Positions 15,565 through 61,043 of a DNA stretch of 64,000 nucleotides are shown here, piece by piece. The DNA is from Eubacteriales bacterium OttesenSCG-928-K08 (lineage in GTDB: Bacteria > Bacillota > Clostridia > Christensenellales > CAG-138), in NCBI GenBank assembly GCA_030266105.1, contig JAJDHH010000002.1, forward strand, positions 6,396 to 70,395, read 5' to 3'. Numbering within the stretch: position 1 is the first letter of the stretch; the number at the start of each line of letters is the position of its first letter. Made by a program: the position numbers and the translations under genes. The notes beneath the pieces are model-generated. The model was not told the DNA's origin. It searched no databases and saw only the letters and a list, made by a program, of their open reading frames with translations.

Positions 15565-15835
15565 AAAAACTATTCCTGGGGATTATCAAGGGGTCGCAAC
15601 CCCCTTGATTTTTAATATGCGGGCAAGAGTCGGAGCCAAGCGCTGCCTGTGGCAGATGAAGCGCGGCGAAAGACCAGTGAACAAGCATGTTTTGCAAAAA
15701 CTTGCATTGCGAACTGCGAAGCGTGTACGCCCGCCAGCCCACACCTTGGGCATTTTTATGCCCGCAGCGTAGCTGCAATAAAAATGTGGTTATCTCAAAA
15801 AAGTGATGTGCGGCGTAGCCGCAGCACTTTTTTGA
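15565..15835 (+). repeat. structured intergenic repeat element, copy A (carries a ~93-nt internal insertion)
   Basis: Shares AAAAACTATTC-TGGGGATTATCAAGGGG...CCCCTTGATTTTTAATATG and ...GCGTGTACGCCCGCCAGCCCACACCTTGGGCATTTTTATG-CCGCAGCGTAGCTGCAATAAAAATGTGGTTA-CTCAAAAAAGTGATGTGCGGC-TAGCCGCAGCACTTTTTTGA almost base for base with copy B. The strand given is the orientation of the consensus; the transcribed strand is unknown. Confidence 0.85.
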
Positions 15836-15841
15836 CAGTCT

Positions 15842-29322: not shown

Positions 29323-29329
29323 GCCTCAC

Positions 29330-29363
29330 AAAAGTGATATGCGGCAAAACCGCAACACTTTTT
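29330..29363 (+). terminator. terminator hairpin of the AAAAGTG...CACTTTTT family (solo copy)
   Basis: ACAAAAGTGATATGCGGCAAAACCGCAACACTTTTTCG closely resembles the 3' hairpin of repeat copies A and B (AAAAAAGTGATGTGCGGC-TAGCCGCAGCACTTTTTT). Confidence 0.6.
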
Positions 29364-29366
29364 CGA

Positions 29367-29403
29367 CACACAAAAAGGACGGTGAAACCGTCCTTTTTGT
29401 GTG
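29367..29403. terminator. bidirectional terminator between the oxidoreductase operon and mltG
   Basis: Perfect 16-bp stem CACACAAAAAGGACGG / CCGTCCTTTTTGTGTG with a TGAAA loop. A/T tracts are built into both arms. Confidence 0.7.
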
Positions 29404-34825: not shown

Positions 34826-34849
34826 AGGGCGGGTGCGAATGCACCCGCC
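34826..34849. repeat. left copy of a perfect 24-nt direct repeat flanking repeat copy B
   Basis: AGGGCGGGTGCGAATGCACCCGCC is identical to 35048..35071. It is itself a hairpin (GGCGGGTGC GAAT GCACCCGCC). Confidence 0.9.
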
Positions 34850-34858
34850 TTCAGGCTG

Positions 34859-35040
34859 TAAAAACTATTCTTGGGGATTATCAAGGGGCCGCGGCCCCTT
34901 GATTTTTAATATGTGGGCAAGGGCGGCGTGTACGCCCGCCAGCCCACACCTTGGGCATTTTTATGGCCGCAGCGTAGCTGCAATAAAAATGTGGTTAACT
35001 CAAAAAAGTGATGTGCGGCATAGCCGCAGCACTTTTTTGA
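34859..35040 (+). repeat. structured intergenic repeat element, copy B (compact reference copy)
   Basis: GGGGATTATCAAGGGGCCGCGGCCCCTTGATTTTTAATATGTGGGCAAGGGCGGCGTGTACGCCCGCCAGCCCACACCTTGGGCATTTTTATGGCCGCAGCGTAGCTGCAATAAAAATGTGGTTAACTCAAAAAAGTGATGTGCGGCATAGCCGCAGCACTTTTTTGA. Homologous to copies A, C and D. Confidence 0.9.
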
Positions 35041-35043
35041 CAA

Positions 35044-35077
35044 GTTAAGGGCGGGTGCGAATGCACCCGCCCTTAAC
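35044..35077. terminator. bidirectional terminator hairpin between sortase and transketolase genes (contains the right 24-nt repeat)
   Basis: Perfect 15-bp stem GTTAAGGGCGGGTGC / GCACCCGCCCTTAAC with a GAAT loop. CTCTTTT follows on the plus strand. Confidence 0.65.
35048..35071. repeat. right copy of the 24-nt direct repeat
   Basis: AGGGCGGGTGCGAATGCACCCGCC is identical to 34826..34849. Confidence 0.9.
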
Positions 35078-40879: not shown

Positions 40880-40910
40880 TTCAAAAAAGTGGCTATGCCA
40901 CTTTTTTGAA
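40880..40910. terminator. bidirectional terminator hairpin, solo copy of the TCAAAAAAGTG...CACTTTTTTGA module
   Basis: TTCAAAAAAGTGGC TAT GCCACTTTTTTGAA is a perfect 14-bp palindrome. Its base is identical to the 3' hairpin base of the repeat elements. Confidence 0.65.
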
Positions 40911-47380: not shown

Positions 47381-48772
47381 ATGGATTTTTCAAGCGCAAA
47401 CACCGCCCTTTGGGGCGTTGTAATTCAATTTGGTATTATTGCAGCAATTATTCTTTTAGCTAATCTTTTGCGCCGCAAAATCAAGGTTATCAAAAAAAGC
47501 CTCATGCCAACGGCTGTGTTGGGCGGTTTTTTGCTGCTGCTGCTGCGCACATCGGGCATAGTAAAGGTTGACCTTGAAATTTTGGAGATGATCACCTATC
47601 ATGGCATAGCGCTTGGGTTTATCGCAATGTCATTGCAGGTGCCCGATAAAAGCAAAAAATCGGGGTCGGATCGTTTGGCCGCGCCTAAAAGCGGAGCGCT
47701 TATTGTGAGCACATATCTTGTGCAGGGTATAATTGGCCTTATCATTTCGCTGCTGCTTGTTTATACGATTATGCCGGAATTTTTTGCCGCTGCAGGCGTG
47801 CTGCTGCCCATGGGTTATGGGCAGGGGCCCGGGCAGGCCAACAACGTTGGCTCCACATACGAAAGCCTGGGCTTTATGGGCGGAAGGTCGTTTGCGCTGT
47901 CTATCGCGGCGGCGGGTTACCTTAGCGCGTGCATAGTTGGCGTAATTTATATATTTGTGATGAATAAGCGGGGTAAAATTGTCGTAAAGGACCAGGGCGA
48001 TATTTCAGGCTCAGTCACTGTGGATACTTTTCAGGATAAGGACGAAATTCCGATTTCTGAATCGATCGATAAGCTATCCATGCAGGTGGCGCTTGTTGTA
48101 ATCGTATATTTCCTCACGTATCTTGTTACAAGAGGCTTAAGCGGCCTTGCAGGCGCCTTGGGCGAGGGATTATCCGTAACGGTGTCCTCGTTGCTGTGGG
48201 GCTTTAACTTTATAATTGGTTCGGTAATCGCCATTTTGGCGCGCACCGGCTTAAAGGGCCTTCGAAAGGCTAAGCTGATGACAAGGCAATACCAAAACAA
48301 TTATCTCCTGAGCAGAATATCGGGGCTGGCATTCGATTTGATGATTGTTGCCGGTGTAGCTTCGATCGAAATTTCGGATCTAAGCGGGCTGTGGCTGCCA
48401 TTTGTGCTGATGTCTGTTGCAGGCGCGATCATTACGCTGATCTATCTGGAATGGATTTGCAAAAGAATATATTCAGGCTACTATTACGAGGGGATGCTTT
48501 CCATGTATGGCATGATGACCGGCACAATCAGCTCCGGCGTGCTGCTGCTGCGTGAGATTGACCCCATGTTTGAGAGCCCTGCGGCGAACAATCTGATAAT
48601 TGGCAGCAGCATGGCTGTTGTGTTTGGCGTGCCAATGCTGCTTTTGATTGGCGTTGCGCCTGAGCAGCCGTTGCTCACACTCATTCTGATGGTTATATAT
48701 CTGGCGCTGCTGCTGTTGTTTATGCTAAAATTTCAAGGCAGAAAAACCAAAACCAGCAAAAGACTAAAATAG
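47381..48772 (+). CDS. sodium/glutamate symporter (GltS/ESS family)-like transporter
   Basis: 463-aa polytopic protein. The N-terminal pattern ...LLANLLRRKIKVIKKSLMPTAVLGGFLLLLL resembles the GltS family. Confidence 0.65.
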   Translation: MDFSSANTALWGVVIQFGIIAAIILLANLLRRKIKVIKKSLMPTAVLGGFLLLLLRTSGIVKVDLEILEMITYHGIALGFIAMSLQVPDKSKKSGSDRLAAPKSGALIVSTYLVQGIIGLIISLLLVYTIMPEFFAAAGVLLPMGYGQGPGQANNVGSTYESLGFMGGRSFALSIAAAGYLSACIVGVIYIFVMNKRGKIVVKDQGDISGSVTVDTFQDKDEIPISESIDKLSMQVALVVIVYFLTYLVTRGLSGLAGALGEGLSVTVSSLLWGFNFIIGSVIAILARTGLKGLRKAKLMTRQYQNNYLLSRISGLAFDLMIVAGVASIEISDLSGLWLPFVLMSVAGAIITLIYLEWICKRIYSGYYYEGMLSMYGMMTGTISSGVLLLREIDPMFESPAANNLIIGSSMAVVFGVPMLLLIGVAPEQPLLTLILMVIYLALLLLFMLKFQGRKTKTSKRLK

Positions 48773-48788: not shown

Positions 48789-48820
48789 AAAAGTGCCGCG
48801 GCTTCAGCCGCGGCACTTTT
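48789..48820 (+). terminator. intrinsic terminator
   Basis: AAAAGTGCCGCGGC / GCCGCGGCACTTTT stem with a TTCA loop. Confidence 0.7.
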
Positions 48821-51963: not shown

Positions 51964-53079
51964 TTAGAGCGGAAGTTCATGCGCAAACGGTGAGTGCACA
52001 TCGTTTGTGCTCAAGCGCAGGCGCCATTCAATTTCGCTTTCGGGTCTGGATAGGTCGATGGGCATGCACGAGCTTCGTTTGGTGAGCGTTGGCGTAAGAA
52101 CGCGGTGCGAATAGGCTTCAAAATCATTTTGAATTTTGCCTACAAGTATGTTGACGGCAACATCCGCCATGGCAGCTTTAGGCTGCTCAATTGTGGTCAG
52201 GTTAATTTTAGGCAGCTGCGCGTATCGGATATTATCAAAGCCCAATAGAGAAATATCTTCAGGTATGCGGATGCCATATTCATCGGCCGCCTGCAGCACG
52301 CCCAGCGCAAATGTGTCGGTGCTGGCCTGTATTGCAGTAAAATCCTGCCGCTCGCGGAAAAGCTGGCGCGCCATTTCGTAGCCGTTGGTAATCGTTGTTG
52401 CGTCGGTATAACTATCAAAAAACATGGGTTCAACGCCATGCTGCAGGCAAGCATCCTGGTAGCCCATTGCGCGCAGGGTGTGGGTCGCGGTGGTAGAGCG
52501 CCGCCCAAAATAGAGTATGCGCTTGTGGCCGAGCGCCATTAAATACTCAGCGCCAATAAACGTGCCCCTGTAATTATCAACAGTCACATAGCTTTCGGGC
52601 GCTTCCATCAGGTTTTCGTTCACAAACACGGTTGGAACCTTATTGAGATATTTTTTCAGGTTCGGGTAACTATCCCTTGCGGTGGGGATTATTATGATGC
52701 CATCCACCTGCCGGCCAAGAACCAGGTTGATTGCTTTTTCCTCTTCCTTAAGGTCGTAGGATGAGCTGCACAGCATTATGCTATAGTCAAGCGAGCGGGC
52801 AATGCACTCGATATGGTATGCCATTTCGGACATAAACGGATTATCTATGCTTGGCAGCACAAGCCCAAGCAAGCGTGTTTCGCGCATTACCATCGAGCGG
52901 GCAACGTAATTGGTTGTGTAGCCCAAACGATCGCACACCTCAAGCACACGCTGGCGGGTATCCTCACGGATGGAGCTGCCGGGCGAAAGCGCGCGCGAAA
53001 CCGTTGCGTAGGAAACATTCGCCTCACGCGCAACGTCTTTTATGGTGACGGTTTTTTTTGTTTGGTTGGATGCGCTCAT
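51964..53079 (-). CDS. LacI family transcriptional regulator
   Basis: N-terminal HTH VTIKDVAREANVSYATVSRAL plus a periplasmic-binding-protein-like effector domain. Divergent from uxaE. Confidence 0.9.
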   Translation of the reverse strand: MSASNQTKKTVTIKDVAREANVSYATVSRALSPGSSIREDTRQRVLEVCDRLGYTTNYVARSMVMRETRLLGLVLPSIDNPFMSEMAYHIECIARSLDYSIMLCSSSYDLKEEEKAINLVLGRQVDGIIIIPTARDSYPNLKKYLNKVPTVFVNENLMEAPESYVTVDNYRGTFIGAEYLMALGHKRILYFGRRSTTATHTLRAMGYQDACLQHGVEPMFFDSYTDATTITNGYEMARQLFRERQDFTAIQASTDTFALGVLQAADEYGIRIPEDISLLGFDNIRYAQLPKINLTTIEQPKAAMADVAVNILVGKIQNDFEAYSHRVLTPTLTKRSSCMPIDLSRPESEIEWRLRLSTNDVHSPFAHELPL

Positions 53080-53257: not shown

Positions 53258-53286
53258 TTGACACTCTAATTTGCAGCTTGTATAAT
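53258..53286 (+). promoter_or_regulatory. consensus sigma-A promoter of the uxaE-iol cluster
   Basis: TTGACA, 17-nt spacer, TATAAT: perfect hexamers. Confidence 0.75.
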
Positions 53287-53411: not shown

Positions 53412-54956
53412 ATGTGTAAGCTGAAGCATTTTGATCCACAGGCCAATCAGGACCCACAGTCTTTTGGAGTATACCCCAAATCCATCCATAAAACCGCAGA
53501 CGGCGCTTATGTTTACATGGCTAAGCAGGAAAATGGAAGGGATACGCTTGTCACATCCGATCCAAGCCTTTTTTCACAAAGCGAAACTTTTGAAAACGAT
53601 AATAAAACATATGCCTGCGCCCCGCTTTCGCATGAAAACGCGGCTGCGCTTCGCAAGCTGTTTCCGTTTACCGCGCCATCCCCCGTGCTCCGTAACGAGC
53701 GCAGCGTTGGCGTGGGGGATCGCCTTGGCATTGCATGTCCCGGGCATATCCGCGTGTTTGAAAAGTACGATGCGTTTCCTGTGTTTGCTCAGCAATCCAT
53801 ACGCGAGCTTACCCTTACAGGCCGCACATATGACAATGTGCTCGATTGCGTGACATTTTCAGTGTTCCGCGAGAATTTCACAAAGGGCTTTGGCGCGGAT
53901 GGCGACCATCTTAAAACGGCCGAAGAGCTGGAATATGCGCTTGGCTGTGGCTATACGATGATTACGCTCGATTGTAGCGAGCATATCCGAAACGATATCG
54001 GCGCAATGAGCGATGAACAGGTAAACGCCGAATACAAACACAATGCAGAACTCGAAAAAGAATACATGAACCAGTGCTTCCTCTTTGAGGGGCTTGCGCT
54101 GGTGTTTGATGAATTCAGCTTTAAGCGCATGACGCTCATCTATAACGATGCGATCGACTTTGCCGCGAGCATTTATGAGCGTTTCATCAAAGGCCGCGAT
54201 GATGTGGACTTTGAAATCTCAATTGATGAAACAGCCACACCCACAACACCCCTGCAGCATTTTTATGTGGTGAGTGAACTTATCAAGCGCGGTGTAAAAT
54301 TCCAAACCGTTGCTCCACGTTTTTGCGGTGAGTTCCAAAAGGGCGTGGATTACATCGGCGATATCGAGCAGTTCCGCCGCGAATTTGAAGAGCACGCGCT
54401 TATTGCCAAGCATTTTAATTACAAAATCAGCGTGCACTCCGGCTCCGATAAATTTATGGTTTTCCCCATCGTGGGCGAGCTCACAAACGGCCGCTTCCAC
54501 TTAAAAACAGCAGGAACCAACTGGCTTGAGGCCATGAAGCTCGTGGCGATGAAGGATGCGTCGCTCTACCGCGAGGTTCACGCATTTGCGCTTAGCGTAT
54601 TTGAGCAGGCAAAAAAATACTACCATGTCACAACCGATCTTTCGCGCATACCTGCGCTTGATACGCTCACCGATGCGCAGCTTCCCGGCCTGTTTGATCA
54701 AAATGATGCAAGGCAGCTTATCCACATCACATATGGAATTATCCTTACGGAAAAGAATGCGGATGGCTCGCTCCGTTTCCACGACAGATTATACGATCTG
54801 TGGAATAAATACGCCGATGATTATGCCGCTCTTTTAGAGGCGCACATTGGCAGACATCTGGAGCTTTTGTATAGCGGTTTCCATCACCATGGCGGCGATT
54901 GCTGCGGCCAGCACGAGCATAACCACGGCGGCTGCTGCGGCCACCACAAACATTAA
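53412..54956 (+). CDS. uxaE: tagaturonate/fructuronate epimerase UxaE with His/Cys-rich C-terminal extension
   Basis: Long collinear similarity to the Thermotoga UxaE sequence as I recall it: GDRLGI..PGHIR...FPVFAQQSIRE...TGRT..NVLD, GFGADGDHLK, DFEISIDETATPTTPLQHF, ISVHSGSDKF, HLKTAGTNWLEA, ARQLIHITYG. Ends with HHHGGDCCGQHEHNHGGCCGHHKH. Confidence 0.85.
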   Translation: MCKLKHFDPQANQDPQSFGVYPKSIHKTADGAYVYMAKQENGRDTLVTSDPSLFSQSETFENDNKTYACAPLSHENAAALRKLFPFTAPSPVLRNERSVGVGDRLGIACPGHIRVFEKYDAFPVFAQQSIRELTLTGRTYDNVLDCVTFSVFRENFTKGFGADGDHLKTAEELEYALGCGYTMITLDCSEHIRNDIGAMSDEQVNAEYKHNAELEKEYMNQCFLFEGLALVFDEFSFKRMTLIYNDAIDFAASIYERFIKGRDDVDFEISIDETATPTTPLQHFYVVSELIKRGVKFQTVAPRFCGEFQKGVDYIGDIEQFRREFEEHALIAKHFNYKISVHSGSDKFMVFPIVGELTNGRFHLKTAGTNWLEAMKLVAMKDASLYREVHAFALSVFEQAKKYYHVTTDLSRIPALDTLTDAQLPGLFDQNDARQLIHITYGIILTEKNADGSLRFHDRLYDLWNKYADDYAALLEAHIGRHLELLYSGFHHHGGDCCGQHEHNHGGCCGHHKH

Positions 54957-56251: not shown

Positions 56252-57370
56252 ATGGCTAAGCAAAAAATCGATTGGTTAATGACCGATATGCCCGGCATCA
56301 TGTTTGAGGATACCACGGTTGGCCGCCTCAAAAAGGAAGTCTGGGATATGAGCGAAGAGCAGCTTGACGCTGTGCTTATGGAATACGGCATCCCCTCCGA
56401 GCCGGAGCTTGGTAAGGCCGGCTGCTACATTCAGAACACCCCACGCTGCAAGGTAATCGAAAAGCGCCGCAAGAACGACATCGTGTTTGTTCCCATCGGC
56501 TGCACGGAAAACCACGGCCTGCATGCGAATACAGGGCTCGACACATTTATGTGCACACAGATACTCGAAGGCGTGCGCCGCTACACTGCCAAGCAGGGCT
56601 GCGAAGTCAACCTCGCTTTCCCGCCGCTCAACTATGGCGGTCACCCCTACCACCACATCGGCATGCCCGGCACGATCAACATGCCGCACGAAGTGGTTGT
56701 AGAAACCCTCATCTACTGCATGCTCGGTCTGTGGAACGATGGCTTCCGCAAGATCATCCTCATCAACAACCACGGTCACCTGTGGATGCTCGAAGCCGCC
56801 ATTCAGGAGTTCTGCAAGCGCTTCCAGCTGCCCGGCCTCTTCCGCACACTGGAATGGCACCGCGCAGTTCGCGAGTTCTTCATCCCCAACAACAAGCCGG
56901 ATAGCCTTGACACCACATTCATCCATGCCGACGAGTGCGAAACCTCCGTTGCGCTGCTGATGTTTAAGGACATGGTTGACATGAGCGTTGCCGAGGATAA
57001 GTGGGGCGAAGCATACCTGCCCGATGGCCACTTCGACAAATCCATCGAGCCGCTGCGCCGCCCGCACCGCTGGAGCGAGGGCGAGGGCCATGCTTCAATC
57101 GAAATGGCGACAAACCGCGAAGGCGTTGTTGGCACACCCACAATCGCCGAAGCCCGCAAGGCAAAGCGCCCGATCGTTGCCATCCTCAAGTATTTAACAC
57201 TGCTTAACGAGCAGATCCTCGAAGCCTTCCCCGCGGGCACAGTGCCGCCGGTTGAAAAGACCACACTGCGCACCGAAGAAGAAATGGCCCCATACCTCAA
57301 GGAGCCTTTCTCCGAGGGCTGGAAGTCCGTGTACGAAATTCCGATGCGCGGCGTATTCACAAAACTATAA
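56252..57370 (+). CDS. iolN: creatininase-family hydrolase, candidate 3-dehydro-scyllo-inosose hydrolase (IolN-like)
   Basis: The creatininase-type metal-binding pattern is present (VFVPIGCTENHGLH, HADECETS). AGGAG SD. Functional call by context. Confidence 0.6.
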   Translation: MAKQKIDWLMTDMPGIMFEDTTVGRLKKEVWDMSEEQLDAVLMEYGIPSEPELGKAGCYIQNTPRCKVIEKRRKNDIVFVPIGCTENHGLHANTGLDTFMCTQILEGVRRYTAKQGCEVNLAFPPLNYGGHPYHHIGMPGTINMPHEVVVETLIYCMLGLWNDGFRKIILINNHGHLWMLEAAIQEFCKRFQLPGLFRTLEWHRAVREFFIPNNKPDSLDTTFIHADECETSVALLMFKDMVDMSVAEDKWGEAYLPDGHFDKSIEPLRRPHRWSEGEGHASIEMATNREGVVGTPTIAEARKAKRPIVAILKYLTLLNEQILEAFPAGTVPPVEKTTLRTEEEMAPYLKEPFSEGWKSVYEIPMRGVFTKL

Positions 57371-57377
57371 GGAACTT

Positions 57378-57534
57378 TCAAAAAAATGGCGGCACCATTT
57401 TTTTGAGGGAACCACGTTTTCCTGTTTGCTGTGGCAAACGGCCGGAAAACGTTTTAAGGAGTGGGCTGCGGCCGTACACGCCGCCCTTGCCCACATATTA
57501 AAAATCAAGGGACTGCGGCCCCTTGATAATCCCC
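57378..57534 (-). repeat. structured intergenic repeat element, copy C (inverted orientation)
   Basis: The reverse complement reads GGGGATTATCAAGGGGCCGCAGTCCCTTGATTTTTAATATGTGGGCAAGGGCGGCGTGTACGGCCGCAGCCCACTCCTTAAAACGTTTTCCGGCCGTTTGCCACAGCAAACAGGAAAACGTGGTTCCCTCAAAAAAATGGTGCCGCCATTTTTTTGA. The 5' half is nearly identical to copy B. The third stem has a different sequence but the same architecture. Confidence 0.85.
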
Positions 57535-57557
57535 TGGAGGGGTCTTGCATTGACCGA

Positions 57558-57591
57558 ATGGCCGCCGCAACTGCGGCGGCCATGCTTTTTT
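57558..57591 (+). terminator. intrinsic terminator between iolN-like and iolO-like genes
   Basis: ATGGCCGCCGCA / TGCGGCGGCCAT stem followed by GCTTTTTT. Confidence 0.7.
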
Positions 57592-57629
57592 ACACTGGGA
57601 TTCAAGTTTTCAACTAAGATAAATAAGAA

Positions 57630-58457
57630 ATGGATCGGATCATGAATAAAATATCACAAACCGTTCCCATGCAATATGACACCATATTTTCTCCATTTAA
57701 GGCGGACGAGTTTGATCATGCCTTGAGTTTTTTGGAGGAAAAAGGCTTTAGCGGCGTGGAGCTTGCGGTCGCTTACCCCAAAAAGGTAAACACGAGCGAG
57801 CTTAACAAAAAGCTCAACGCACATAATCTTGCCGCCACTACGCTTTCCACCGGCCAGATTTATGGGCTGGAGGGTTTGTTCCTCTCATCCTTTGATGATA
57901 ATGTGCGCAAAAACACGATTGATATCGTAAAAGGCCACATCGAATTATCGGCCGAGATTGGCTTGCCCGTGGTGACAATCGGCCTGCTGCGTGGTAAACT
58001 GGAGCAGGGTGAAATATCCGATTTGTTGGATAATTTTAAGCGCGGCTTAATGCCCTGCGTGGAGTATGCCTTTAAGCTTGGCGTAAAGCTGCAGGTGGAG
58101 CCGATCAACAAGCAGGAAACCGTGCTCATAAACAGCGTTAAGCAGTGCCTTGATTTTTTGCGTGAGTTGGGCGATCCTGAAAATGTCGGCATTCTCTATG
58201 ATGCGTATCACTCCGACCTTGAGGATGGGGACATGCTTGCGGCAATTAAGGCTGCTGCCGGGCGCATATTTAACGTGCACCTTGCGGATTCTCACCGGGG
58301 CCTGCCGGGTTATGGCGATATCGATTTCCCCGCAATGTACAAGGCAATACAGGCAACCGGTTACACAGGCGCTTATGCGCTGGAAACGCTTGTTATTCCA
58401 TCCGTAGAGTTTGTGAATGAGCATTGTTATCAAAGCGTTGTGGATATCATGAAATAA
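57630..58457 (+). CDS. iolO: xylose-isomerase-like TIM-barrel sugar epimerase, candidate 5-dehydro-L-gluconate epimerase (IolO-like)
   Basis: 275 aa with an AP-endonuclease-2/sugar isomerase TIM-barrel pattern (GFSGVELA..., LQVEPINKQET, HLADSHRGLPGYGDIDF). No clear SD; the alternative ATG at 57642 is equally possible. Functional call by context. Confidence 0.6.
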   Translation: MDRIMNKISQTVPMQYDTIFSPFKADEFDHALSFLEEKGFSGVELAVAYPKKVNTSELNKKLNAHNLAATTLSTGQIYGLEGLFLSSFDDNVRKNTIDIVKGHIELSAEIGLPVVTIGLLRGKLEQGEISDLLDNFKRGLMPCVEYAFKLGVKLQVEPINKQETVLINSVKQCLDFLRELGDPENVGILYDAYHSDLEDGDMLAAIKAAAGRIFNVHLADSHRGLPGYGDIDFPAMYKAIQATGYTGAYALETLVIPSVEFVNEHCYQSVVDIMK

Positions 58458-58488: not shown

Positions 58489-59502
58489 ATGATTAACATC
58501 GGAATCATTGGCGCTGGGCGAATTGGGCAGGTGCACGCAAAAAGCATACTGACCGGCGTGCCGGAAGCTAAAATTAAGGCGATTGCCGACCCGTTTATGA
58601 CGGAACAAACCGAGCAATGGGCAAAGAGCGTAGGCATTAACAACGTTTACCTCGATCATAAAAAAATAATCGACGATCCTGAAATTGATGCGGTGCTCAT
58701 CTGCTCATCAACAGATACGCATTGCCCAATTTCGCTTGAGGCGATCGCTGCGGGCAAGCATGTTTTCTGCGAAAAGCCGATCGATCATGATCTTGAGAAA
58801 ATCAAAAGCGTCATAAGCGCTCTTGAGGGGAAAAACATAAAATATCAGGTCGGTTTTAATCGCCGCTTTGATCACAACTTCCGCGCGGTGCGCGATGCCG
58901 TTGTCAAAGGCTCGGTTGGCGACATTCAGGTGATCAAAATCAGCTCGCGCGATCCCGCGCCGCCACCGATTGCCTATGTTAAGATTTCCGGCGGCATATA
59001 TCTGGACATGATGATTCACGATTTTGATATGGTGCGCTTCCTTTCCGGCAGCGAGGTAGATGAGGTCACGGCCTATGGCGCCGCGCTTGTTGATCCCGCT
59101 ATTGGCGAGGCCGGTGATGTTGACACCGCAATCGTTACGATGAAGCTTAAAAACGGCGCTTTGGCCGTGATCGATAATTCCCGCCAGGCCGTTTATGGTT
59201 ATGATCAGCGTGCCGAGGTGTTTGGCTCCAAGGGCTGTGTTGAATGCGGGAATGATCGTGCGTCAACCGCGGTAATCAGCACGGTGGATGGCGTAAACTC
59301 CGAAAAGCCGCTCTGGTTCTTCCTCGAGCGCTACATGGCGGCATATCAGCTGGAAATCCGCTCCTTTATCGATGCAATCGTAAACGATACGCCCACCGAG
59401 GTTGGCGTGGATGATGGCCTGCAGCCCGTGCTTATCGGCCTTGCGGCGAAAAAATCCATGGAAGAGGGCCGCCCGGTTAAAATTTCAGAAATCAGCATTT
59501 AA
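58489..59502 (+). CDS. iolG: myo-inositol 2-dehydrogenase (Gfo/Idh/MocA family)
   Basis: Rossmann IGIIGAGRIGQVHA, FCEKP and VGFNRRFDHNF are characteristic of IolG-type enzymes. AAGGAG SD. Confidence 0.75.
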   Translation: MINIGIIGAGRIGQVHAKSILTGVPEAKIKAIADPFMTEQTEQWAKSVGINNVYLDHKKIIDDPEIDAVLICSSTDTHCPISLEAIAAGKHVFCEKPIDHDLEKIKSVISALEGKNIKYQVGFNRRFDHNFRAVRDAVVKGSVGDIQVIKISSRDPAPPPIAYVKISGGIYLDMMIHDFDMVRFLSGSEVDEVTAYGAALVDPAIGEAGDVDTAIVTMKLKNGALAVIDNSRQAVYGYDQRAEVFGSKGCVECGNDRASTAVISTVDGVNSEKPLWFFLERYMAAYQLEIRSFIDAIVNDTPTEVGVDDGLQPVLIGLAAKKSMEEGRPVKISEISI

Positions 59503-59535
59503 ACATCAAATTCACTTAAAAGGAGCGTTGTGCAC

Positions 59536-60810
59536 ATGAGCATTTTTTTGAAGGATATGAGCGGCAGCGGGCTTACAAACGAGCAGATTCTTGGGGCGCT
59601 TAAAGACTCCATTAAGGGCAAAACCCTGCGCCGCGTGCTTATTATTCCGCCGGATTACACGCGCTTTCATTCAAACGCCGGCTTTATAACAAACGCGTAT
59701 TATCACATGCTTTGTGATATGGGCTGCGAGGTGGATATTTTGCCCGCGCTTGGCACGCATGAGCCGGTTTCAAAAGAGGAATGCGAGCTGATGTTTGGGG
59801 ATATCCCATACGAAAAGTTCATTGTGCACAACTGGCGCACGGATGTTATCCGCATAGGCGAAGTGCCGGGGGAATACCTTAGCGAAATTACGGACGGCCT
59901 GTGGGTTGACCCAATCAGCGTGGAGGTCAACAGGCTTGTGATGGATGAGCGTTATGATCTAATAATCTCGCCAGGCCAGGTTGTGCCGCATGAGGTTATC
60001 GGCATGGCCAACCACAGCAAAAACCTTTTTGTGGGCGTGGGCGGAAGCGAGATGATAAACAAATCGCACATGGTTGGCGCTGTGTATGGCATGGAGCGAA
60101 TGATGGGCAAGGATTTTACGCCCGTGCGCAAAATGTTTGATTATTCGCTCGAAAAATTCCTGAAGGATCGCCCCATACTTTTTGCGCTGACGGTTACAAC
60201 AGCGCCCGGCGGCAACATACACACGCACGGCCTGTTTATCGGTGAAAAGCGGGATGTGCTGGAGGCAGCCGTTGAGCTTGCGCAGCAAAAAAATATCGAT
60301 TTTGTGGAGCGCGGCATCAAAAAGTGCGTGGTGTATCTTGATCCTAAGGAGTTTAAGAGCACTTGGCTTGGCAACAAATCCATTTATCGCACGCGTATGG
60401 CCGTGGCGGATGGCGGCGAGCTAATCGTGCTCGCACCAGGCGTAACAAAGTTTGGTGAGGATGCGCAGGTGGATAAGCTCATCCGTAAATACGGTTATTG
60501 CGGCAGGCTTAATGTGCTGGAGCTGTTTAACAACCCGGAAAATGAGGATATCCGGCAGAACATGGGCGCAGCGGCGCATTTGATTCATGGCTCGTCCGAT
60601 GGACGCTTCAAAATCACTTATGCCGTTAAGCAAATCACAAAAGAGGAAATCGCCCAGGTGAAGTTCGAGCCTGCCGACTATGATGAGATGGCAGCGCGCT
60701 ATAATCCGGAAACGCTCGATTACGGCTGGAACACCTTGCCGGATGGTGAGGAGATTTACTTCATCCCCAACCCTGCACTGGGATTGTGGATTGATAAAAC
60801 CAGGTTTTAG
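59536..60810 (+). CDS. LarA-like (lactate racemase N-terminal domain / DUF2088) putative nickel-pincer-dependent racemase/epimerase
   Basis: The order IIPPDYTRFH, LPALGTHEP, DLIISPGQVVPHEVIGMANHSKNLFVGVGG, INKSH parallels LarA blocks SDHTRP, ATGFHRP, SHFFAGFSGGRKS and MANH as I recall them. ATG at 59536 lies 10 nt after GGAG. Confidence 0.7.
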   Translation: MSIFLKDMSGSGLTNEQILGALKDSIKGKTLRRVLIIPPDYTRFHSNAGFITNAYYHMLCDMGCEVDILPALGTHEPVSKEECELMFGDIPYEKFIVHNWRTDVIRIGEVPGEYLSEITDGLWVDPISVEVNRLVMDERYDLIISPGQVVPHEVIGMANHSKNLFVGVGGSEMINKSHMVGAVYGMERMMGKDFTPVRKMFDYSLEKFLKDRPILFALTVTTAPGGNIHTHGLFIGEKRDVLEAAVELAQQKNIDFVERGIKKCVVYLDPKEFKSTWLGNKSIYRTRMAVADGGELIVLAPGVTKFGEDAQVDKLIRKYGYCGRLNVLELFNNPENEDIRQNMGAAAHLIHGSSDGRFKITYAVKQITKEEIAQVKFEPADYDEMAARYNPETLDYGWNTLPDGEEIYFIPNPALGLWIDKTRF

Positions 60811-60813
60811 GTT

Positions 60814-60984
60814 TCAAAAAAGTGCGGCGGCTTTGCCGCACCTCACTTTTTTGAGAAACACCACATTTGCTTGTTCGGCTACGCCTCACGGACAGCAAAT
60901 GCTCTAAGGAGTGGGCTGCGCACGCGCATGTCGCGCTTGCCCACAGATTAAACATTAAGGGGCTGTGACCCCTTAATAATCCCC
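60814..60984 (-). repeat. structured intergenic repeat element, copy D (inverted, most diverged)
   Basis: The reverse complement reads GGGGATTATTAAGGGGTCACAGCCCCTTAATGTTTAATCTGTGGGCAAGCGCGACATGCGCGTGCGCAGCCCACTCCTTAGAGCATTTGCTGTCCGTGAGGCGTAGCCGAACAAGCAAATGTGGTGTTTCTCAAAAAAGTGAGGTGCGGCAAAGCCGCCGCACTTTTTTGA. Confidence 0.85.
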
Positions 60985-61009
60985 TAAGATAGAGACCCTT
61001 AACAGCCTT

Positions 61010-61036
61010 AAACCGCGGCAGAGCCGCGGTTTTTTT
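61010..61036 (+). terminator. intrinsic terminator (probable original terminator of the larA-like gene)
   Basis: AAACCGCGGC / GCCGCGGTTT stem followed by TTTT. Confidence 0.7.
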
Positions 61037-61043
61037 GTGCGCA

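Follow-up and report, generated by a model that had tools for sequence, protein, structure and literature searches.

The spacer between iolN and the iolO-like gene of a Thermotoga-type inositol cluster is best explained by a native terminator and a later insertion of one copy of a stem-loop repeat, here called copy C. The repeat resembles REP, BIME and MITE elements and would occupy a tolerated 3′ niche between the iolN stop codon and the terminator, with the downstream genes expressed by read-through. We give this reading a probability of about 0.7. The window, that is, the whole stretch of DNA analysed, comprises 64,000 nt of Eubacteriales bacterium OttesenSCG-928-K08. The features of the cluster are as follows.

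51964-53079, - strand: divergent gene for a LacI-family regulator, at the head of the cluster
53258-53286, + strand: sigma-70 promoter, TTGACA-17-TATAAT (12/12), likely the cluster promoter, upstream of uxaE at 53412
56252-57370, + strand: iolN, 3-dehydro-scyllo-inosose hydrolase (NCBIfam NF041098, 298 bits against a cut-off of 245; Pfam Creatininase)
57642-58457, + strand: iolO-like gene (ORF opens at 57630, likely start at 57642), no Shine-Dalgarno (SD) sequence
58489-59502, + strand: iolG, with an SD (NCBIfam 480 against a cut-off of 355)
59530-60810, + strand: larA-like gene for a LarA-family nickel-dependent hexonate epimerase, with an SD (above the NCBIfam cut-off)

After the regulator on the - strand, the + strand encodes UxaE, IolM, IolN, the IolO-like protein, IolG and the LarA-family epimerase in this order. 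UxaE has a Pfam match of 3.6e-186 and IolM scores 511 against an NCBIfam cut-off of 450. The set that marks a Thermotoga-type inositol cluster at the equivalog level (IolG, IolM, IolN, IolO and UxaE) was thus found, with IolO below cut-off: IolO is the best match of the IolO-like protein, at 185.6 against 300. In the Thermotoga-type inositol route, IolG catalyzes the first step. The window IolN matches MDL2257679.1 (Eubacteriales bacterium OttesenSCG-928-K08) at 100% identity, and its next relatives stand at ~92%. The IolO-like protein is the fastest-evolving member of the cluster in all comparisons, with 60–66% identity where IolN has 88–92%. A GGAG-type SD precedes uxaE, iolN, iolG, the larA-like gene, padR and the DUF4097 gene, and none precedes iolO.

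The first-pass annotation had described the spacer as a single repeat copy followed by a strong intrinsic terminator, and this description is borne out. The + strand folds into five hairpins, namely HP1 to HP4 of copy C and the canonical terminator, and the spacer folds much more stably than its shuffles do, with z = -5.9 for the + strand and z = -6.3 for the - strand.

About 57376-57549, + strand: repeat copy C, four hairpins and a tail, found by nhmmer and covariance-model matches and absent from seven syntenic clusters
57375-57409, + strand: HP1, an A7-stem-U7 hairpin of -16.1 kcal/mol in the minimum-free-energy fold, followed by seven U residues
57414-57452, + strand: HP2, a variable hairpin whose sequences in copies A/B, C and D are unlike one another, yet all pair
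57453-57502, + strand: HP3, a GTGGGC...GCCCAC stem around an inner hairpin, with a GTACA loop and a conserved AAGG in front
57504-57534, + strand: HP4 (ATCAAGGG-loop-CCCTTGAT, the hairpin itself at 57504-57527 in the fold) and the conserved AATCCCC tail
57558-57591, + strand: intrinsic terminator or attenuator, apparently native, of -24.6 kcal/mol with a U6 tract, orthologous to a hairpin in the repeat-free cluster L138

The TAA stop codon of iolN occupies 57368-57370, the end of the ORF, and copy C starts 6 nt after it, with boundaries uncertain by ~7 nt at the 5′ end and ~10 nt at the 3′ end. The A-run of HP1 starts at 57380. An A/T-flanked hairpin therefore does follow the iolN stop, as first annotated, but at an offset of 4–9 nt rather than exactly 7. 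A similar adjustment applies to the other side of the spacer. The iolO ORF does open with the ATG at 57630, yet the ATG at 57642 is the likely start and makes the spacer 271 nt instead of the 259 nt given before; the window protein reads MNKISQT, and relatives begin IolO with MNKISQT or MENKLSQT. The absence of an SD and of a promoter at iolO, also noted at first, was reproduced: no SD was found, and the stretch from 57592 to the start codon has no sigma-70-like site. Searches with the spacer gave no BLAST match to plasmids and phages, and the best Rfam hit at the E-value level was rli56, at 23 bits against a cut-off of 47.

The terminator annotated at 57558-57591 takes the top rank in the terminator scan, with its stem at 57558-57583 and the U-tract reaching 57591. 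The stem has 11 pairs, of which 9 are G-C, and a loop of 4 nt, is followed by GCTTTTTT and folds at the -24.6 kcal/mol given above. A G+C-rich stem-loop with a U-tract on the transcribed strand, the structure that defines an intrinsic terminator, is thus present in full at 57558-57583. HP1 shares this structure only in part, with an A-U rich stem and 2 G-C core pairs, and is not listed by the terminator scan; from its modelled fold, it looks like a bidirectional terminator. In its inner stem, HP1 of copy C departs from the HP1 of the other copies and resembles the adjacent native terminator. HP4 is terminator-like on the - strand (ATCAAGGGG..CCCTTGAT TTTTAAT), and on that opposite strand TTTTTAAT comes after the hairpin. 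In this genome, the predicted folds of the outer hairpins HP1 and HP4 make the first hairpin met from either side look terminator-like.

The age of the terminator relative to the repeat can be judged from syntenic clusters that lack the element. Seven such relatives, with IolN 88–92% identical to that of the window, were compared, and none has the repeat in its gap. They represent about five lineages, since L003, L126/L127 and L128 are mutually close. The gap from iolN to the next gene is 13–157 nt overall, and 13–93 nt in the six where iolO follows (L003, L004/L005, L126/L127, L128, L138 and L140).

L004/L005: IolN identity 88%, gap 13 nt, nothing notable
L140: IolN identity 89%, gap 65 nt, hairpin without a U-tract
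L126/L127 and L128: IolN identity 92%, gaps 71 and 69 nt, hairpin, UCUUUUU and the SD GGAGGAG
L003: IolN identity 91%, gap 82 nt, hairpin with a U-rich tail (UCUCCUUUU) and the SD GGAGGGG
L138: IolN identity 91%, gap 93 nt, terminator with the core of the window terminator
L139: IolN identity 90%, no iolO, 157 nt from iolN to iolG, related hairpin after iolN

The best syntenic match is L138, which keeps the window order of lacI, uxaE, iolM, iolN, iolO, iolG and larA. The core of the window terminator, GGCCGCCGCAAC[A/T]GCGGCGG (20 nt, 57560-57579), occurs once in the window, its palindrome aside, and once among 140 fetched loci, in the iolN-iolO gap of L138. The two variants read GGCCGCCGCAACAGCGGCGG in the L138 gap and GGCCGCCGCAACTGCGGCGG at window 57560-57579, and the L138 terminator as a whole reads TCAGGCCGCCGCAACAGCGGCGGTCTGA-TTTTCTTTT. 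L139 carries after iolN a hairpin related to the window terminator, GGCCGTCGCATTGCTGCGGCGGCC. The gap hairpins with a U-tract in L003, L126 and L128 (-28 to -31 kcal/mol) are unlike it. Judged by these comparisons, the terminator at 57558-57591 appears native, conserved and older than copy C, and copy C appears to be a lineage-specific insertion of ~165–175 bp. Copy C would then have gone in downstream of the iolN stop codon and upstream of the terminator. The mobility is deduced from presence and absence between species ~92% identical in IolN and not from strain polymorphism. L138 has CTTTCAA at the left junction, at the point where copy C opens with TTTCAAAAAA; this may reflect 6–7 nt of microhomology.

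That the terminator is itself a component of the repeat was considered, as suggested by ACAGCCTGAA just before the terminator in copies B and D and in L126. For copy C this is ruled out, as L138 has the same terminator without the repeat. Elsewhere in L138, the iolG-larA spacer (L138:7059-7325) is 265 nt long compared with 27 nt in the window, with a called 59-aa ORF inside. It holds an HP4-like hairpin (AATCAAGGGGCA..TGCCCCTTAT) adjoining GTACAC and gives no match to the repeat model R1; its content may be a different or decayed repeat.

These comparisons bear directly on the cause of the split. The repeat insertion had been credited with dividing the cluster, and this is not supported: because repeat-free L138 has the same terminator core at the same place, the split or attenuation predates the repeat. 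The common ancestor of this and the related clusters would already have had an intrinsic terminator or attenuator between iolN and iolO. Copy C, a member of a modular multi-copy stem-loop family, would then have landed between the iolN stop codon and the native terminator, an interval in which insertions seem to be tolerated. Transcription started at the uxaE promoter would pass the terminator in part and so reach iolO, iolG and larA, as must also happen in L138. The effect of the insertion on them is probably little change, because transcripts from the uxaE promoter already had to pass the native terminator. HP1 may add some termination and some 3′-end protection to the uxaE-iolM-iolN message, and copy C would be a near-neutral passenger. 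We infer the termination efficiency and read-through at the spacer from its sequence. The comparisons favor read-through, whether leaky or regulated: the cluster would have an internal terminator, conserved among relatives, that lets part of the transcripts pass. The window hairpin resembles intra-operon intrinsic terminators and attenuators in its G+C-rich 11-bp stem, 4-nt loop and U6 tract, in sitting amid genes of one pathway, and in a position and sequence conserved in L138. No antiterminator alternative structure was identified for 57558-57591.

Alternatively, the insertion may be polar, with the repeat and the terminator blocking transcription, so that the pathway would be crippled by poor expression of iolO, iolG and the larA-like gene. 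This option, put forward at first, is weakened by the age of the split and is now unlikely. Two terminator-like hairpins in series (-16.1 and -24.6 kcal/mol) would suit such a block, but the strong one seems to predate the insertion, since clusters that lack the repeat have it too. The lack of a promoter-like site in the 50 nt ahead of iolO, and iolO as the only gene without an SD, point to poor expression as well; nevertheless iolO, iolG and the larA-like gene are intact, and IolG and the LarA-family protein pass their NCBIfam equivalog cut-offs. A silenced IolG, the enzyme of the first step, would also render the upstream genes useless. The divergence of IolO matches its generally fast rate in relatives. 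The expression of iolO itself could still be poor here, because it has no SD, whereas the L003/L126/L128 clade has GGAGGAG (GGAGGGG in L003).

Copy C belongs to a multi-copy family. The repeat unit is ~165 nt long with four hairpins, and the window contains four full copies and one solo first hairpin. Besides copy C, these are as follows.

15570-15837, - strand: copy A, located between the stop codon and the terminator of marR, antisense to the genes on either side (marR and gerA)
34865-35042, - strand: copy B, between the convergent transketolase and sortase genes
60812-60992, + strand: copy D, 2 nt past the larA-like stop, with a terminator following at 61010-61039
29324-29367, - strand: solo HP1-type hairpin, between the convergent POR-gamma and yceG genes

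Copy C is inverted relative to copies A and B, as had been stated, since it lies on the + strand and they lie on the - strand. All four copies are positioned in the interval from a stop codon to a terminator. HP2 has three unrelated sequences (A/B, C and D), each hairpin-forming, and HP1 and HP4 carry compensatory changes. Copy A holds a unique insertion of 95–98 nt in the GTACA loop (15625-15722). The possibility that this 95-nt insertion is a second repeat was rejected, as it is unique among all sequences compared. A terminator hairpin, GGCGGGTGCATTCGCACCCGCCC, stands on both sides of copy B as an exact 23-nt direct repeat (34827-34849 and 35049-35071) and is found nowhere else in the window. 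HP1-type hairpins with AAAAGTG...CACTTTT number 6 in the window against 0.03 expected, and three of them are solo. Two of the solo AAAAGTG..CACTTTT hairpins lie at 40885-40905 and 48789-48820, one before queT and one after an ORF ending at 48772; from their folds, they are plausible bidirectional terminators.

The family extends beyond the window into gut, rumen and bioreactor metagenomes. A metagenome scan with HP4 and AATCCCC matched at least 120 contigs, compared with an estimated ~4 expected by chance, although the pattern biased the recovery of members and many of these contigs share the hairpin only. A covariance model built from the four window copies found full-length members in contigs from several projects, including Ga0123353 contigs (the closest among the matches listed), a camel co-assembly and one viral contig. 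Family members are also present in L126 and L128, two relatives of the window organism, where they were found by sequence-profile search and inspection. In each of these two (L126:300-500 and L128:400-610, - strand), a diverged member precedes a peptidase M23 gene at the same position. L128 has kept an intact HP1, whereas that of L126 has decayed, and related terminator-like direct repeats flank both members. The viral contig (L135) has a 45-nt insertion in its family member at the same loop position (GTACA) as copy A. Rfam at the gathering level recognized nothing in the window or at the repeat sites of 20 related loci, whose sole matches were tRNA and SRP RNA genes. Used as a query against species-representative genomes, the HP3-HP4 linker core gave two chance matches only, inside coding regions, and literature string searches for the motif or the strain name yielded nothing relevant.

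The secondary structure of the family is well supported by covariation. Among 24 aligned members, 94% of cells are standard pairs and 32 of the 39 pairs have changed on both sides, in an alignment that was fitted to the model's own structure. Changes on both sides amount to 144 cells, compared with 36 in shuffles, and none of 500 shuffles reaches the observed values; controls with slid partners pair at 38–54%. Unpaired motifs also recur in distant members: GAGG..AAC after HP1, CAAGG after HP2, the GTACA loop, GGATT before HP4, AATCCCC after HP4 and a GGGG..TTCATGCGTTTGCC tail. On the sequences compared, this conservation of unpaired motifs appears to exceed the needs of a purely selfish hairpin array.

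The structure may serve at the level of DNA or of RNA, and the former fits better. Of the pairs, 91% are Watson-Crick, with G-U at 3% and A-C at 2%. Sense and antisense folding energies of 26 members do not differ (Wilcoxon p = 0.23), and G-U pairs number 74 versus 71. GC skew is positive throughout the window, with two copies on each strand of one replichore, and no replication-strand bias is present. No conserved promoter or ORF was found in the repeat, and no protein recurs near the motif in an all-against-all comparison of ORFs within 3 kb (~120 loci among the matches listed), which gave only syntenic groups and generic ABC ATPases. Since the pairs are Watson-Crick, both orientations occur, and strand signal, linked protein, promoter and ORF are all lacking, a DNA-level stem-loop element is a better fit than a strand-specific regulatory RNA. 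A small conserved ORF within the repeat was a separate candidate, rejected for a 1-nt indel between copies in its sole candidate frame. An sRNA gene with its own promoter was likewise rejected, as there are no conserved hexamers and copies C and D begin 2–6 nt after stop codons.

It has to be weighed nonetheless whether the repeat is a functional structured RNA, either a cis attenuator that controls read-through into iolO or an sRNA or 3′-UTR element, possibly acting in trans. The conserved junction motifs keep an RNA reading alive, at a low probability; we regard it as improbable. The strong hairpin covariation in distant members would be expected of such an RNA, yet G-U usage and folding energy carry no strand signal and no Rfam match exists at either the gathering or the E-value threshold. 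Many members follow a co-oriented gene, 2–30 nt from its stop codon (same orientation in 16 and opposite in 8, by crude ORF calls). Copy A, however, is antisense to both neighbors, and the arrangement of a cis-regulatory leader, upstream of and co-oriented with a gene, is not shared by the family, as A and B have no co-oriented downstream gene. In several subfamilies, the 3′ tail is also complementary to the 5′ arm of HP1, which offers alternative pairings. HP1, however, would stop transcripts ahead of the repeat body, and the close spacing of C and D to the stop codons comes without a conserved promoter. Extrapolation of the window density of 4.5 intergenic copies per 64 kb to a 3-Mb genome would give 150 or more copies, many above what is expected of a regulator.

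Very improbable is an arrangement of two transcription units, also raised before, in which a promoter for an alternative sigma factor, or a weak sigma-A one, within 57592-57641 drives iolO-iolG-larA: the canonical terminator directly upstream and weak hexamers (TTTACA, then TAAGAT 20 nt later) would allow it, but the space is only 50 nt, no site in it passes the promoter scan, no conserved promoter-like block follows the terminator when the window, L138 and L139 are compared, and a single LacI-family regulator and a single perfect promoter stand at the cluster head.

Returning to the reading of an inserted passenger, the repeat is best classed as a REP/BIME/MITE-like intergenic stem-loop repeat. 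REP and BIME sequences of enterobacteria are likewise multi-copy hairpin repeats in intergenic 3′ regions and inside operons, form modular mosaics, and occupy intervals from a stop codon to a terminator or those separating convergent genes, with an expected influence on mRNA 3′-end stability and termination. Copies of the window repeat are likewise intergenic and dispersed, but its repeated unit is a four-hairpin composite of ~165 nt, with four different hairpins in fixed order, whereas REP is a palindrome of 35 nt that carries a GTAG head; the two are unrelated in sequence. Cozzuto et al. 2008 (PMC2267715) reported 92 families of stem-loop-containing repeats, and many such families are undescribed and species-restricted. 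The window repeat shares with the stem-loop and MITE-like families (Correia, BOX, RUP and ERIC; PMC2267715) the intergenic location, the common predicted secondary structure and a presence or absence that varies between related genomes. It differs from them in lacking terminal inverted repeats and a short regular target duplication, in the variable flanking direct repeats of 12–45 nt that some members carry, and in a core common to many metagenomes and not to one species.

The flanks were analyzed member by member. A comparison of the first 45 nt with the reverse complement of the last 45 in copies A–D detected no terminal inverted repeats (p = 0.12–0.91 against shuffles), and the short target-site duplication of fixed length that is typical of MITEs is not seen. 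Flanking direct repeats are significant in 5 of the 12 members tested, with lengths of ~38 nt in L126, 12 nt in L128, 9 nt in L122 and ~38 nt in L119, the last including the end of the upstream ORF. The exact 23-nt repeat of copy B extends to ~45 nt including the AATCC-tail-terminator unit, and copies A, C and D have no significant flanking direct repeat. Pfam searches of ~37 window ORFs (roughly 13.5–17.5, 29–36 and 37–63 kb) revealed no transposase.

The repeat may also resemble substrates of HUH transposases, such as IS200/IS605-derived PATEs and REP-RAYT. These too combine a hairpin with a conserved single-stranded tail (HP4 and AATCCCC in the window repeat, containing TTGAT) and have perfect Watson-Crick stems without inverted terminal repeats. 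The window repeat differs in having neither a replication-strand bias nor a transposase nearby.

A bolder proposal, which we put forward only tentatively, is that the repeats make up a class of mobile structured element that has not been described before and is shared by anaerobes of gut, rumen and bioreactors, marked by four traits. These would be a four-hairpin core with fixed junction motifs (CAAGG, the GTACA loop, GGATT and AATCCCC), insertion specific to the interval from stop codon to terminator, tolerance of cargo insertions in the GTACA loop, and variable flanking duplications of 12–45 nt that may include the terminator itself. Such a class, if real, would imply an unusual insertion mechanism, either structure-targeted or via a single-stranded intermediate, or alternatively a host function as a portable bidirectional terminator cassette. 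The terminator-containing flanking duplications are of interest for mobile-element biology.

For the inositol cluster, the internal terminator after iolN would be a conserved design feature and not insertion damage. Because of this, uxaE-iolM-iolN and iolO-iolG-larA should be handled, both in annotation and in models of expression, as two halves of a single operon that are differentially expressed. The repeat family is dense in the window, occurs widely in metagenomes, has no Rfam entry and probably causes breaks in assemblies, and a model of it would mask many spurious calls of novel ncRNAs or small ORFs.

Two further hairpin groups were encountered in the metagenome contigs. The hairpin ATCAAGGGGCT(A)GCGCCCCTTAATAATCCCC occurs in viral-type contigs of ~6.4–6.6 kb (L035, L049, L081, L086, L098, L104, L130, L132 and L133); any relation to the window repeat may reflect the search pattern. 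Its C/A mismatch would be a G-U pair on the opposite strand only. In L035 and L086 it adjoins ORFs resembling, by eye, the inovirus Zot/pI assembly ATPase and a pIV-type secretin. The second group consists of high-copy repeats of ATAAAGGGGAGNNCCCCTTTATAATCCCCC, seen at L029:3159-3430 and in many Ga0209508, UPSB01 and Ga0134101 contigs, many of which end at the motif. A second hairpin often precedes these repeats, ending ..ATAACCCC, and L029 contains three copies 122 nt apart. Judging from the motif, the ATAAAGGGGAGNNCCCCTTTATAATCCCCC repeats look like a separate family sharing the design of a hairpin followed by AA(T/C)CCCC.
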